Assembly (NCBI RefSeq): GCF_003018255.1
Contig: NZ_CP027440.1
DNA length: 64,000 bases
Direction: 5' to 3' (one strand)
Source: Escherichia coli
Lineage (GTDB): Bacteria; Pseudomonadota; Gammaproteobacteria; Enterobacterales; Enterobacteriaceae
Under the pieces are notes generated by a model. It worked only from the letters and a program-made list of their open reading frames with translations, searched no databases and had not been told where the DNA came from. The position numbers were made by a program, and so were the translations under genes. Shown piece by piece: positions 7,826 through 32,659 of this stretch (position 1 is its first letter; each line of letters starts with the position of its first letter).

Positions 7826-8641
7826 CTACGAATTGATATGTTCCTTGCTGTAACGTCGCTTCCACGCAGCTGGCGTTAAACCGGTGTGTTTGCGAAAAAT
7901 CTGTCGGAAATAGCCAACGTCATTAAACCCGCACAACGCAGCCACTTCAGTGAGCGATCGCGCTTCGCTAATTAACAGCTTTTCGGCTTCGCGCACTCGC
8001 TGGCGATGAATTGCTTCTGTTAACGTCAGATGAAACACCCGCCGGTAGACGCGCCCAAGATAATCGGCATTGCAGTACAGCTCGCGGGCTAAAAGCGCCG
8101 TAGAAAGCGGGCGATGATATTGCGTGCGAATCAGTTTCTGCGCTTTCCAGGCAAGCGTGGTACCTGCGGCATCGGCCTGTTCATCAAGACGCGCGTCACG
8201 GGTGAGCTGCTGCAAAATCAGCAGCACAATAAACTCCAGCGCCGGAGTGCGTTGATGCTTTTCCTGTTCGCTTAAGAACTGGCGAAACAGGGCCACCAGC
8301 GCCTGCGGATCGGCAACCTTCGTTTGTTGCGGCACGCTAAGATGAGTGAGCCAGCGCGGGTCGCTATCCGGCGCTTTAACCTCAAAATGCAGCCAGTAAA
8401 ATTTGAGATCGGCGGGAAAATCCTCTACCCCAACATGCTGTCGGTTCGGCCAGAGTAATAAACTCTCTCCCGCATCGACCAGAAATATCCGCTCTTCTTC
8501 CTGAATCGTTAATCGACCTTTTTCGACAAAGATAATTTCCCATGACTCCAGCCGCCTTGCCGGGTGCCTCCCTACGCCACGGGAAATAAATAATCCACCA
8601 TTTTGCACTTTAATCGGTAACGTCATGGATAATTCGAGCAT
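7826..8641 (-). CDS. AraC/XylS-family transcriptional regulator
   Basis: 271 aa; C-terminal AraC-type HTH region (…EAIHRQRVREAEKLLISEARSLTEVAALCGFNDVGYFRQIFRKHTGLTPAAWKRR), N-terminal cupin-like sensor; divergent from the symporter gene. Confidence 0.8.
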   Translation of the reverse strand: MLELSMTLPIKVQNGGLFISRGVGRHPARRLESWEIIFVEKGRLTIQEEERIFLVDAGESLLLWPNRQHVGVEDFPADLKFYWLHFEVKAPDSDPRWLTHLSVPQQTKVADPQALVALFRQFLSEQEKHQRTPALEFIVLLILQQLTRDARLDEQADAAGTTLAWKAQKLIRTQYHRPLSTALLARELYCNADYLGRVYRRVFHLTLTEAIHRQRVREAEKLLISEARSLTEVAALCGFNDVGYFRQIFRKHTGLTPAAWKRRYSKEHINS

Positions 8642-8866
8642 TGATATGTAATTTCCCGCTTATTCATTAATGATTAAACACATTACCTTTTGATTATTAA
8701 TCAAAAACATTAATTTCACCTGATCCATTTCACACTTTTAAATTCAGGTCGGAATCGTCACCTTTTTTTACTCTTTTCTCGCCTTGTTGATATTCCCGTT
8801 CACGGCAGAATTAATCAGGTCATTGCAATAAAACTAAAAATTGCTCCCTATTCACGAGGAATATCT

Positions 8867-10267
8867 ATGACCTCTACACCGATTACTGCCGCTGATATCG
8901 CTAAAGGTAAAATTGACGATGCGTTATCTGTACGGGAAAAAATAGGCTACGGCCTGGGTGACGCAGGCGGCACCGTAATAACTTGCCTGATCATGAACTT
9001 TCTCACCTTTTTCTACACCGACGTTTTTGGCTTAACTCCGGCGCTGGTCGGCACGCTGTTTATTGCACTGCGCGTGTTTGATGCCATCTCCGACCCGGTG
9101 ATGGGCGTCATTGCCGACCGGACGCAAAGTCGCTGGGGGCGCTTTCGTCCGTGGCAGTTATGGATTGCCATTCCCATCGGCATTATCGGCATCCTGACGT
9201 TCACCGTGCCAGATGCCAGCATGGGAGTAAAAATCGCCTGGGCGTTCGGTACTTACCTGCTCCTTTCAGTCGGTTATACCGCCATCAACGTACCGTACTG
9301 CGCGCTGATCAACACCATGACCACCCGCCACAATGAAGTGATCTCCTGCCAGTCCTGGCGATTCGTTCTCTGCGGCGTAGCGGGATTTCTGGTTTCGGTT
9401 GGCCTGCCGTGGATGGTGGATCTCTTCGGTCAGGGTAATGCCGCGCGCGGCTATCAACTGGGCGTCGGCGTGCTGTGCGCCATTGCCGTGGTGATGTTCC
9501 TGTGCTGTTTCTTCTGGGTTCGTGAACGGGTGCCACTCTCCACAATGGGGAAATTTACCCTGCGCGAACATCTTGCCGGGCTGCGGAACAACGACCAACT
9601 GCTGCTGATGCTGGTCATGTCTTTCCTGCTGATTAACGTCTTTAATATTCGCGGCGGTGGGTATATGTACTTCATTACCTACGTCTTACAAGGCAGTACG
9701 GGCTACACGTCGCTGTTCTTCACCATGGTCACCTTCGCCTCCATTATCGGCTCGGTGATTGTCAGCCCGTTAACGCGGCGTTTCGATACCGTCAAAATTT
9801 ACTACTACACCAACCTGCTCCTCGCTGCGCTGGCGGTGTTGATGTGGTTCCTGCCTTCTGGCCCGGCTTATCAAACGCTGTGGCTGGCGGTGATCCTCGG
9901 TAATGGCGTGATTCTTGGCTTCACATTGCCACTGCACTTCTCATTGATGGCCTTTGCCGATGACTACGGCGAGTGGAAAACCCGCGTACGTTCTTCCGGC
10001 ATGAACTTCGCCTTCAATCTGTTTTTCATCAAGCTGGCATGGGCCTCCAGCGCCGGGATCATCAGCCTGCTGTTTATTTTTGTCGCCTACCAGCCAGGCG
10101 TGGAAAACCAGACCACCAGTTCGCTTGGCGGGATCACGGCGATGGAAACATTACTGCCTGCGCTATTCCACCTGCTGCTGGCAGGGGCGATCCGCTTTTG
10201 CAAACTCAATAACCCTATGATGTCACGCATTGCTAGCGACCTGCGTCAGCGTCATGTACAGCCTTAA
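8867..10267 (+). CDS. GPH-family (MelB-like) glycoside-pentoside-hexuronide:cation symporter
   Basis: 466 aa, 12-TM-like; GPH signature [13 protein letters not shown] near the N-terminus; GAGGA RBS before the ATG. Confidence 0.8.
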
Positions 10268-13241: not shown

Positions 13242-14216
13242 ATGACAAAATTACAACTTAAGTACCGGGAGTTAAAAATTATCTCGGTAATCGCTGCCAG
13301 TGAAAATATCAGCCATGCCGCGACTGTACTTGGCATCGCACAGGCCAACGTCAGCAAATATCTTGCTGATTTTGAATCAAAAGTGGGTTTAAAAGTCTTT
13401 GACCGAACCACCCGACAGCTGATGCTCACACCTTTTGGCACCGTGCTGTTACCGTATATCAACGACATGCTGGACAGAAACGAGCAGCTTAATAATTTTA
13501 TTGCAGATTATAAGCATGAGAAACGTGGTCGGGTCACTATCTATGCACCAACCGGCATAATTACCTATTTATCCAAACATGTAATCGATAAAATTAAAGA
13601 TATCGGTGATATCACCTTATCGCTAAAAACCTGCAATCTTGAGCGTAATGCCTTTTATGAAGGCGTCGAATTTCCCGATGATTGTGATGTTTTAATCAGC
13701 TACGCCCAACCAAAAGATGAATCGCTGGTTGCCAGTTTTATTACCCAATATGCCGTAACCGCTTATGCCAGCCAGCGCTATCTTGAGAAACATCCCATTA
13801 GCCGTCCTGACGAACTCGAACATCACTCCTGTATTTTGATCGACTCGATGATGATCGACGACGCGAATATCTGGCGCTTCAACGTCGCCGGGAGTAAAGA
13901 GGTGCGGGATTATCGCGTGAAGGGAAATTACGTTTGCGACAACACGCAATCTGCGCTGGAGCTGGCACGAAATCACCTGGGGATTGTGTTTGCGCCAGAC
14001 AAAAGTGTGCAGAGCGACCTGCAAGACGGCACGCTGGTGCCCTGCTTTCAGCACCCGTATGAATGGTGGCTGGATCTGGTGGCTATCTTCCGTAAACGGG
14101 AATACCAGCCCTGGCGGGTCCAGTATGTGCTGGATGAAATGCTGCGTGAAATTCGCCACCAGCTTGCTCAGTCGCAGCAACTGCGGCCTGAACAAGCGGC
14201 GGAAAGCGAAGATTAA
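13242..14216 (+). CDS. yiaU: LysR-family transcriptional regulator
   Basis: 324 aa; N-terminal HTH (…[23 protein letters not shown]…) plus LysR substrate-binding region. Confidence 0.8.
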
Positions 14217-15349
14217 TGATCGAGATAAAGGTAATGCACCCAGCTGGTCATGCGTAACAGTACTTTGCGCATCACCGAGACATGGCTGAAATGATCAGAA
14301 TAGACCGCCACCTGGGCGTAAATACCGTCTGGTAATGCGCTCAAATCAGTATGCTCATCCAGTTCAATGGTCGCGATAACGCCATCTGAACCCGGCGCTG
14401 TGTTTAACGTCTGTAAGGTGCCGGTCGACTGATAAGCTCCACCGGGAACAGCTGGACTAATGGCTGCCAGCTTACCGCTGAACACTTTGCCTGGCAGAGC
14501 GTTAAATACCACTTCCGCATCATCGCCGGGAGCCAGGCGCAGCAAGGAGTTCTGACGGAACTGCGCCACGATTTGTCGTTTCTGATCGGGTATAAACACC
14601 ATCACCGGACGTAGCGGCAGCGACGCGGCATAGGTACCCGGACGAATCAGCACCTGGGTCACATAACCATCGCTCGGCGCACGCACTATCGTCTGCTCAA
14701 GGTTATATTTTGCTTCCGCGAGCTGCGCTTTCAGGCTGGCGATTTGAGAATGTTCACCCAACACCAGGCTATCCAGCTGGCTCTGGATCTGTTTTTGTTC
14801 CGCCGCCGCTGATTTTACGGAGGCTTCCTGCGCCAGATAATTTTGCCGCGCCACATCGATATCGCGTTCTGAAAACGGGTTTACTTTCGCCTGGCTGCCA
14901 CGTGCGTAACGCTGATACTCTTTAGCGAACTTATCCCGCGTGGCCTTTGCCTGCTGAGTATTCGCCGCCATCTCATCTAACTCTGCGCCCAACGCCCGCT
15001 GTTTATGTTCTGCGGTAACGATATCCGCCATCAGCCGATCCACCCGAGCCTGATAACGCGTCGGGTCCAGTCGAAATAGCACCTCACCTTTTTTAATCAG
15101 CGTATTTTTCTTGTCCGTCACTTCGATCACCACGCCTGTCACCTGTGGGACAACAGGAATAGAAATAACCGCTTTTTGCGCTTTAAAGGTATACGGATGG
15201 TTATAGTTCATTAACAGAATTAGACCGCTGACAATAAATATGCCTCCCAGGGCCGCTGTGGGAATGGTCCATTTATTTACAGGAATTTTGAAGATCTTAA
15301 ACATTGCCCATGCGAAAGCCACATAGGTTAAAATAATCAGTAAATCCAT
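14213..15349 (-). CDS. yiaV: HlyD-family membrane-fusion-like protein
   Basis: 378 aa; N-terminal TM, coiled-coil middle, beta-rich C-terminus; about 80% identical to the second copy at 30765..31901. Confidence 0.8.
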
Positions 15350-15354
15350 AAGTA

Positions 15355-15678
15355 TTACTCGGCAGAAGAGGATTTGATGTCAGCGAGCTGTTTCTCCAGC
15401 CCGGCAATACGCTGTTGTAGTTGCACAACGGAGGAGTCATGGTTTTGCATTCCCCATCCACGCTCCGGGCGGTAAAGCGTGGCCCAAATCCACAAAAATG
15501 GCCAGATAACATGTAACGTAAAAAGACTCACCCAACCAGCAACATGAATGGCGTCGGCATGAGGATGATTACGTTTTTTGGCAATCAGGTAGGGAACATC
15601 ATGTAAAATAATAATCCCATAGAATATCACCAGAAATACAAAAATAAGCACTCCCAATGCAAAATAATCCAGGAACAT
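15355..15678 (-). CDS. yiaW: DUF3302-type small inner-membrane protein
   Basis: Start placed at MFLDYF… by analogy with the paralog at 31904..32266 (MFLNYF…); ORF-track frame extends to 15708. Confidence 0.75.
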
Positions 15679-16108
15679 ATTTCCCTCAGAGAATATAGAA
15701 AAGAACAATTAACGCATATTATGAAATACCATAATGCGGTGCAATTTCCTTATTTATATAACGACATATTGTTTTTTATATACTTTCTGAAGTGTGCAGC
15801 CTGGCTTTTCAACAGTGCGAGGCTTATCATATTGAAATAATGGAACTATTGGCCAAACTAATGAATAACTCCAGTAAAACATCCACAGTACAGATTAAGC
15901 GTATTAAACCTTCAATTATCTACCGTTTATTGCTGATTGGCCTCGGAACGCCAATGGTGATTTATGGCCTGGTTCGCCCGCTCACCATCGAAACGCGAGA
16001 TTAAACTCCTGGCAAAACACGCCCCAGAAACGCACTTCTGTTGACGTAGTCTGGGTTATTGCGCACGTAGGTTTAAAACGTAAATTGTAACAACGTGCGC
16101 TTTGTTTA

Positions 16109-32483: not shown

Positions 32484-32659
32484 GTGATTCAGATCACAAA
32501 GATCCAACAAACCACCAAAACAAAAATGTGACATTAGTCACATTTAAATGCCATTTTTAGCGAAAATCGCCGTCTTGTTGCTTTTTTACACAAGCATTTT
32601 GTGATGAGCATCACGTCAATTACCTCTCTACCCCCTATATTTATGTGACCCATATCACA
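32484..32659. promoter_or_regulatory. Cluster of four CRP-like palindromes (TGTGA-N6-TCACA type) in the mtlA upstream region
   Basis: tgtgattcagatcaca (32484..32499), tgtgacattagtcaca (32527..32542), tgtgatgagcatcac (about 32600..32614), tgtgacccatatcaca (32644..32659); the mtl promoter is known to be strongly CRP-dependent. Confidence 0.5.

Follow-up and report, generated by a model that had tools for sequence, protein, structure and literature searches.

Two paralogous Escherichia coli gene pairs, yiaWV and yibIH, that couple a DUF3302 membrane protein with an EmrA-class periplasmic adaptor and lack a linked pump gene

A stretch of 64,000 nucleotides from Escherichia coli (assembly GCF_003018255.1, contig NZ_CP027440.1), called the window below, carries two gene pairs, yiaW-yiaV and yibI-yibH. 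In each, a gene for a small inner-membrane protein of the DUF3302 family is followed after 2–5 nt by a gene for a periplasmic adaptor of the HlyD (membrane fusion) family. We conclude with high confidence that yiaWV and yibIH are ancient paralogues, copies of a single conserved operon of two tightly coupled genes, and we tentatively propose that the DUF3302 protein takes the part of the adaptor's inner-membrane partner. The genes are arranged as follows.

15355..15678, minus strand: yiaW, DUF3302 inner-membrane protein of 107 amino acids (open reading frame; PF11742, 146 bits; RefSeq start)
15350..15354, minus strand: yiaW-yiaV junction of 5 nt, TAA TACTT ATG (read from the sequence)
14213..15349, minus strand: yiaV, EmrA-class periplasmic adaptor of 378 amino acids, HlyD family; two-helix membrane domain at the N-terminus (open reading frame, Pfam, RefSeq name)
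31904..32266, minus strand: yibI, DUF3302 inner-membrane protein of 120 amino acids, paralogue of yiaW (open reading frame; PF11742, 140 bits)
30765..31901, minus strand: yibH, EmrA-class periplasmic adaptor of 378 amino acids, paralogue of yiaV (open reading frame, Pfam, PDB sequence match, Foldseek)

The 5-nt junction of yiaW and yiaV is compatible with translational coupling, and the gap between yibI and yibH measures 2 nt, so that the equal spacing claimed in an earlier sequence-only reading of this DNA proved to be similar spacing only. The same reading had placed the first module at 14213..15708; the genes do lie there on the minus strand, but 15708 is the TTG that begins the longest open reading frame of yiaW, and the RefSeq start is the ATG at 15678. 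From this TTG the frame runs through 10 codons (15679–15708) before it reaches the annotated ATG. The annotated start is supported, because homologues begin at the MFL(N/D)YF position.

Pairwise alignment bore out that the pairs are collinear and related, with identities slightly below the roughly 80% that had been estimated by eye: YiaV and YibH share 291 of 378 residues (77%) without a gap, and YiaW and YibI share 83 of 113 (73%). The membrane core of the small proteins is nearly the same in both (71 of 77 residues), and their C-terminal tails have diverged with insertions and deletions. At the nucleotide level the adaptor genes are 69% and the DUF3302 cores 77% identical, and the flanks of the two pairs gave no alignment and are unrelated. 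The proportion of synonymous differences (pS) is 0.78–0.80 overall, which is saturation, and 0.66–0.95 in windows of 40 codons, while the nonsynonymous distance (dN) is low, at 0.18 (adaptors) and 0.07 (DUF3302 core). Saturation over the full length together with low dN indicates an old duplication kept under purifying selection. Gene conversion between the pairs can be ruled out, since pS is uniformly high.

Orthologues of both copies occur in Citrobacter and Pseudocitrobacter, where the yibH type is 88–93% identical to YibH and the yiaV type 83–90% identical to YiaV; in Citrobacter the two types of pair lie about 8.5 kb apart on one contig. Serratia, Pantoea, Rahnella, Yersinia and Buttiauxella mostly have one copy among the loci retrieved, and Serratia grimesii has a divergent second pair (about 59% identical). 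Nearly all of the 5426 complete E. coli genomes carry yibHI (5388, 99%), which is essentially a core element; 3767 (69%) carry yiaVW, which is missing from the other 31%.

Co-conservation of the small gene and the adaptor gene had been set beforehand as the point on which the idea of a two-gene module would stand or fall, and the pairing turned out to be close to invariant. We collected 154 related loci (1.96 Mb), mostly from Enterobacterales, with a few from other gamma- and alphaproteobacteria and from unassigned metagenome contigs. A scan of one genome per species gave 73 loci, 72 of them with downstream sequence, and in 72/72 a gene for a full-length YibH homologue comes next after the DUF3302 gene on that strand; Alcanivorax, Rhizobium, Ferrimonas, Shewanella and Aeromonas are among the genera covered. 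Distant members served as seeds for a metagenome scan, which gave 80 loci, and the adaptor is present in 70 of the 73 that have room for a partner. The stop-to-start distance lies between −4 and +9 nt in 123 of 126 complete pairs. Each of the three metagenome exceptions is different. In a Shewanella-like contig (L089, 7977–10986) an IS4-like transposase gene (8430–9749, opposite strand) separates the DUF3302 and adaptor genes. In L083 (7734–8462) the DUF3302 reading frame ends in TLIRRILLRMRSWQNYIFMEGH, the last 22 residues of the adaptor, i.e. its conserved C-terminal helix, which looks like an in-frame deletion of almost the whole adaptor gene. In L149 the DUF3302 gene is apparently alone.

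Both family assignments made from the sequence alone held up against Pfam. YiaV and YibH exceed the cut-offs of PF00529 (CusB_dom_1; 56–57 bits, cut-off 26.5), PF16576 (HlyD_D23; 42–44 bits, cut-off 30) and PF13437 (HlyD_3; 27–33 bits, cut-off 22.2). The nearest NCBIfam models are those of MdtN, EmrA/EmrK and AaeA, with MdtN at the top for YiaV and EmrA/EmrK first for YibH, MdtN just behind; all scores stay far below the cut-offs, namely 112–113 against 390.8 bits for EmrA/EmrK (TIGR00998), 111–113 against 376 for MdtN (NF007785) and 62–75 against 400 for AaeA (NF007850). Judged by these profile scores, YiaV and YibH are relatives, not members, of the three subfamilies. The RND (resistance-nodulation-division)-type adaptor model TIGR01730 (cut-off 94.9 bits) is passed by YibH (99.9) and narrowly missed by YiaV (89.9), a borderline result that reflects a generic adaptor signal. 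The best PDB sequence match of YibH is E. coli EmrA (E=1.7e-11).

For structure prediction, YibI was fused to YibH through a (G4S)6 linker and modelled with AlphaFold2 (AF2) on a paired alignment of 26 DUF3302-adaptor pairs. The mean confidence of the model, given as predicted local distance difference test (pLDDT), was 74, with 83–95 in the periplasmic part of the adaptor. In the prediction, the adaptor has two helices at its N-terminus and one at its C-terminus, strands of the lipoyl and barrel domains, and a hairpin that opens with a helix of 56 residues. A Foldseek search with this model returned as best matches the EmrA chains of the EmrAB-TolC cryo-electron microscopy structures 8ZAL and 8ZAR (E about 1e-19 to 4e-20, target template modelling score 0.66–0.69), followed by MacA, AcrA and MexA; all four were matched with a probability of 1.00. 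Profile and fold thus both place the protein in the HlyD/membrane fusion family (TCDB 8.A.1). We are highly confident that it is an EmrA-class adaptor with lipoyl, alpha-hairpin and beta-barrel domains, and equally that its two-helix N-terminal membrane domain and conserved C-terminal amphipathic helix set it apart from ordinary adaptors. The parts of YibH are encoded as follows.

31758..31901, minus strand: yibH codons 1–48, two predicted transmembrane helices with a short K/R loop (hydropathy; AF2 helices 151–169 and 178–200 of the fusion)
31248..31613, minus strand: yibH codons 97–218, alpha-helical hairpin, where the paralogues, and the family at large, diverge most (AF2 helices)
30768..30839, minus strand: yibH codons 355–378, conserved C-terminal amphipathic helix (AF2 helix 505–521)

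Within the C-terminal helix, R361, R366 and W370 are invariant among the 26 family members, and YibH and YiaV are identical at 23 of 24 positions (96%), compared with 82% identity in the membrane domain and 68% in the hairpin. Hydropathy and the distribution of Lys and Arg suggest that the short loop between the two membrane helices is cytoplasmic and the N-terminus of the adaptor periplasmic.

The small proteins score 146 bits (YiaW) and 140 bits (YibI) against PF11742 (DUF3302), whose cut-off is 32. They had been called polytopic, which in this case means two predicted transmembrane helices (hydropathy, AF2). The helices flank the conserved DUF3302 core pattern HDIPY...RNHPH...WP...W, and the invariant residues P29, H38, P39, W49, S51, W59, P60 and W65 are present. 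AF2 predicted a helical hairpin (helices 2–35 and 41–67) and a separate tail helix (90–113) with a pLDDT of about 70. We describe DUF3302 with high confidence as a two-helix hairpin of the inner membrane with a highly conserved, His-rich turn and a variable coiled-coil tail; the K/R distribution and hydropathy again suggest that the turn, KKRNHPH, is cytoplasmic. Two segments can be distinguished in yibI.

32063..32266, minus strand: yibI codons 1–68, helical hairpin core with the conserved motif (alignments; 65–84% identity to distant homologues)
31907..32062, minus strand: yibI codons 69–120, variable tail with a predicted heptad helix (AF2 helix 90–113; 20% identity in distant homologues)

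A PDB sequence search with YibI matched designed coiled coils only, through the tail, and is uninformative. The family comprises 819 clusters at 50% identity among 1.8 billion representatives. Homology of DUF3302 to AaeX or AaeB was ruled out (hhalign probability 0.1–0.2%), and a PADLOC scan for anti-phage defence systems gave only two chance-level coiled-coil matches (E about 0.005).

Conservation is unevenly distributed over the two proteins. Identity between the E. coli proteins and distant homologues is 84% in the second transmembrane helix of DUF3302, 74% in its turn and 65% in its first helix; it is 50–62% in the membrane helices and loop of the adaptor, 52% in the adaptor's C-terminal helix and about 40% in its beta domains, and falls to 23% in the adaptor hairpin and 20% in the DUF3302 tail. 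The pattern between the paralogues YiaV and YibH agrees with this. As judged from these alignments, the membrane segments are the best-conserved parts and those under the strongest selection, and the adaptor hairpin is weakly conserved.

The sequence-only reading had also stated that no cognate pump or outer-membrane channel is encoded nearby, which stood for the window and likewise for nearly all of the 154 loci. Searches of the window by tblastn with TolC, EmrB, AcrB, MacB, AaeB and AaeX gave no match, and adaptor queries matched YiaV and YibH alone. In the RefSeq annotation of the syntenic region, transporters are limited to sugar and TRAP (tripartite ATP-independent periplasmic)/PTS (phosphotransferase system) types. 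The 154 loci contain no TolC-, AaeB- or AaeX-like gene. In L130 (1–5819) a DUF3302 gene paired with a short-hairpin adaptor is preceded, at a distance of 416 nt, by a complete, acrA/acrB-like RND operon. Two further loci have an EmrB-like gene on the opposite strand: the one in L022 lies about 5 kb off and has its own adaptor gene, and the one in L147 lies about 6 kb off. The RND operon of L130 includes an AcrA-like adaptor gene of its own and is the sole RND case in the 154 loci, so we did not accept it as a partner. An inner-membrane transporter of the RND, ABC (ATP-binding cassette), MFS (major facilitator superfamily) or FUSC type encoded in an operon with the pair was found neither in the window nor in the 154 loci.

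The immediate neighbours of the pair vary by lineage and include genes for SecA, a glyoxalase, an EAL protein, SulP, a porin and the S-component of an ECF (energy-coupling factor) transporter, among others. Recurrent neighbours are limited to a DUF3313 lipoprotein gene (10 loci) and DUF3300 (2 loci), neither of them general. The DUF3313 gene adjoins the pair in loci of several genera, upstream in some and downstream in others and in both orientations (about 7% of loci), and its product could be an occasional third partner. The positions of these genes within their loci are given below.

L063, 9307–9960: DUF3313 lipoprotein gene
L132, 7307–7960: DUF3313 lipoprotein gene
L134, 587–1240: DUF3313 lipoprotein gene
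L144, 10505–11179: DUF3313 lipoprotein gene
L040, 11626–12294: DUF3313 lipoprotein gene
L059, 11634–12302: DUF3313 lipoprotein gene
L114, 6899–7567: DUF3313 lipoprotein gene
L057, 9254–9922: DUF3313 lipoprotein gene
L066, 8984–9652: DUF3313 lipoprotein gene
L152, 1227–1820: DUF3313 lipoprotein gene

In the window itself, the positions described earlier were verified: yiaVW stands beside a LysR-type regulator gene and aldB, and yibHI by an rhs element and mtlA. The regulator gene, yiaU (plus strand), is convergent with yiaV (minus strand), and the stop codons overlap by 4 nt (14213–14216), so the 3′ ends of both transcripts must overlap. YiaU (LpsR) is reported to target yiaT and the waa operon rather than yiaWV (PMC9068703), which fits the convergent orientation; the adjacency of yiaU to yiaV is therefore functionally uninformative. 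The aldB gene lies upstream of yiaW, and mtlA is divergent from yibI. A reading frame for a Rhs-type protein of 1344 amino acids (24916..28950) and small downstream reading frames stand between yibF and yibH. In strain 104 (L001) yibF directly adjoins yibH, and the Rhs element is thus variable at this site. The DNA of the window is from an E. coli other than K-12; its yiaVW stretch is 100% identical to that of strain 104 and 95–99% identical to most other E. coli genomes.

Alignment of 11 enterobacterial upstream regions revealed one conserved block 5′ of yibI.

32329..32371, minus strand: conserved block TATGGCGAGAATCGCGAACCCGGATTATTGTCA upstream of yibI (alignment of the 11 upstream regions)

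The block is a possible promoter or operator, and no recognisable stress-regulator site was found in the footprint of these regions. In Raoultella, Leclercia, Lelliottia and strain RIT691 (L017, L020, L031, L022; alignment columns 243–365, upstream of position 10001) an insert of about 120 nt, itself conserved, separates a conserved upstream block from the start of yibI; Escherichia, Citrobacter and Klebsiella lack it. Repeated CRP-type sites (TGTGA-N6-TCACA) in the yibI-mtlA intergenic region (32380–32560), kept in Escherichia, Citrobacter and Klebsiella, face mtlA and probably belong to its promoter. Promoter and terminator scans around both operons gave promoter matches at about chance level; one weak candidate upstream of yiaW (15826–15855) was not used.

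That the function is uncharacterised, as had been stated, agrees with a 2024 review of the y-ome for yibH and yibI (PMC11551758) and with a 2024 transporter study that lists yiaV (TCDB 8.A.1.1.4) as an uncharacterised membrane fusion protein (PMC10971958). No functional study came up in our literature searches for the genes, the operons and DUF3302 by name. Several screens mention the genes. The Keio yibH deletion mutant belongs to the 15 transporter knockouts that are most sensitive to azithromycin, together with those of mdtN, acrB and tolQ/R (PMC9405208, Table 3). In strain UTI89, yibI and yibH are induced in urine, and a yibI deletion mutant is outcompeted there (competitive index 0.33) and adheres less (PMC5404293). 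Evolved phages plaque less well on a Klebsiella pneumoniae yibH deletion mutant (PMC11796411), and deletion of yiaW raises the efficiency of Ca2+ transformation, as cited in PMC12844161. IS1 insertions in yiaW arose during adaptation to macrophages and had no phenotype alone (PMC5495878), and yibIH is dispensable for anaerobic scavenging of NO (PMC5320621). We take the published phenotypes of yiaW, yibH and yibI knockouts as weak hints.

Our proposal is an export or barrier device that spans the envelope, works with an unlinked outer-membrane channel and has DUF3302 as the adaptor's own partner in the inner membrane; to this reading we give slightly less than an even chance. It is the simplest one, because DUF3302 and the membrane helices of the adaptor outrank the periplasmic domains in conservation and the pair is never encoded with a pump. 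DUF3302 and adaptor would assemble as one inner-membrane complex, in which DUF3302 would take the place held by an MFS, FUSC, ABC or RND pump in classical systems. The adaptor would oligomerise, as EmrA or MacA does, into a funnel across the periplasm that would reach an outer-membrane channel, TolC in E. coli, and the whole would be a device that spans the envelope and acts as a conduit or barrier for small molecules. The four-helix membrane unit might move or gate the substrate, possibly by means of conserved His, Ser and Thr residues. Since the two E. coli copies differ chiefly in the hairpin and the DUF3302 tail, the alignments suggest that they are sub-specialised in their periplasmic contacts.

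Several observations weigh against this proposal. Physical interaction, oligomeric state, TolC dependence and substrate have not been reported for any family member. The output of the AF2 run is limited to per-residue confidence and secondary structure, and confidence was moderate in the N-terminal helices of the adaptor (pLDDT 59–86) and in the DUF3302 helices (52–77). With at most eight helices per pair of heterodimers and no recognisable energy-coupling module, the assembly is not an established transporter design. The adaptor hairpin (alignment region equivalent to YibH residues 94–223) falls into length classes of 66, 81, 94, about 128 and 183 residues, while DUF3302 and the membrane helices of the adaptor are constant; this is odd if one fixed geometry has to be spanned. 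The motif RxxxLxxxxxxS at the hairpin tip, its positions confirmed in the E. coli sequences, serves for docking on TolC-type channels according to the AcrA and MacA literature. Its strict form RxxxLxxxxxx[ST] occurs at the tip in 4 of the 26 family members, about nine times the chance expectation of 0.46, but is absent from YibH and YiaV of E. coli, whose tips have an enlarged loop instead; EmrA and AaeA are also without it. Finally, each published phenotype stems from a single screen, in most cases without complementation.

The main rival explanation assigns the adaptor to a canonical pump from another locus, e.g. an adaptor-less MFS or FUSC/ArAE (aromatic acid exporter) protein, with DUF3302 as an AaeX-like accessory. 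The nearest relatives of the adaptor, EmrA, MdtN and AaeA, all work with such pumps, the order aaeX-aaeA-aaeB likewise places a small membrane gene before the adaptor gene, and outer-membrane channels are often unlinked, a precedent for separately encoded parts. Adaptor genes, however, normally adjoin pump genes, and the pair was never in an operon with a pump in 154 loci of distant lineages. DUF3302 is moreover without homology to AaeX and AaeB, and that its helices and those of the adaptor are best conserved is unexpected for a mere anchor and accessory. We consider a separate pump rather unlikely.

A bolder form of our proposal dispenses with a pump altogether: the DUF3302 hairpin and the two adaptor helices would be self-sufficient, and the pair together with an outer-membrane channel would represent an unrecognised class of pump-less trans-envelope exporters or gated conduits, which might be coupled to protons or metal ions through the conserved, His-rich turn and through His, Ser and Thr residues in the middle of the membrane. 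We regard this as distinctly unlikely.

About as doubtful in our view is a role other than export, with the pair acting as a periplasm-spanning scaffold, tether or stress/assembly factor, possibly with a lipoprotein. The DUF3313 gene beside the pair in 10 loci of several genera would fit, although the association holds in only about 7% of loci. So would phenotypes that are general to the envelope, i.e. adhesion, phage plaquing and transformation efficiency (PMC5404293, PMC11796411, PMC12844161). The loosely constrained length of the hairpin and the missing strict TolC-docking motif in the E. coli proteins point the same way, but the motif does occur in some clades (4 found, 0.46 expected) and the Foldseek matches are exporter adaptors; to our knowledge, every characterised protein with lipoyl, hairpin and barrel domains is one.

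It is highly improbable that the pairs are functionless, decaying remnants of former pump operons. The absent pump, the lack of yiaVW in 31% of E. coli genomes and the disrupted copies in L083 and L089 might be read in this way, yet selection and conservation contradict it: dN is 0.07–0.18 with saturated synonymous distance (dS), intact full-length pairs occur across classes of Proteobacteria, yibHI is kept in 99% of E. coli genomes, and expression and knockout phenotypes have been published (PMC5404293, PMC9405208). The notion that the likeness stems from recent duplication, gene conversion or an assembly artefact is refuted for practical purposes: the copies do share an orientation and are separated by only about 16.5 kb, but nucleotide identity is 69–77%, pS is at least 0.66 in all 40-codon windows, the flanks are unrelated, each copy has orthologues in Citrobacter and other genera, and both are present in thousands of independent complete genomes.

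YiaV and YibH are catalogued E. coli adaptors without an assigned pump that still belong to the y-ome. The analysis shows DUF3302 to be their near-invariant partner, a pump-less pair to persist across distant proteobacteria, and selection to be strongest in the membrane parts. The label 'HlyD family secretion protein' thereby becomes a testable proposal, namely an adaptor-based envelope device with a two-helix inner-membrane component. If true, it would widen the range of tripartite export architectures and might explain the macrolide, urine-fitness and phage-plaquing phenotypes.

Among known systems, EmrA of EmrAB-TolC (8ZAL, 8ZAR) is most similar to YibH and YiaV, being the best match in both sequence and fold, at an identity of about 20%. 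EmrA and the two adaptors have in common an inner-membrane anchor, lipoyl domain, long alpha-hairpin and beta-barrel, and the absence of a membrane-proximal domain. EmrA differs in having one transmembrane helix and a gene beside that of its pump EmrB, whereas YibH and YiaV have two N-terminal helices, a C-terminal helix and DUF3302 as partner. The aaeXAB operon resembles yibIH in arrangement, in that only a few bases separate a small gene for a membrane protein of two helices from the gene of an EmrA-class adaptor downstream, and AaeA is 25% identical to YibH (E=2e-16). In contrast to the two N-terminal helices of YibH and YiaV, AaeA has a single one, and AaeX (DUF1656) shows no homology to DUF3302 (hhalign probability 0.1%). 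Of the further components of aaeXAB and mdtNOP, neither a pump of the AaeB or MdtO type nor a channel of the MdtP type stands beside the DUF3302 pair in the window or the 154 loci. MacA and AcrA share the adaptor fold with YibH and YiaV, and their tip motif RxxxLxxxxxxS (R131 in MacA, R128 in AcrA) recurs in some DUF3302-linked adaptors, not in YibH and YiaV; unlike these two, MacA and AcrA have a membrane-proximal domain and are encoded alongside their pumps.

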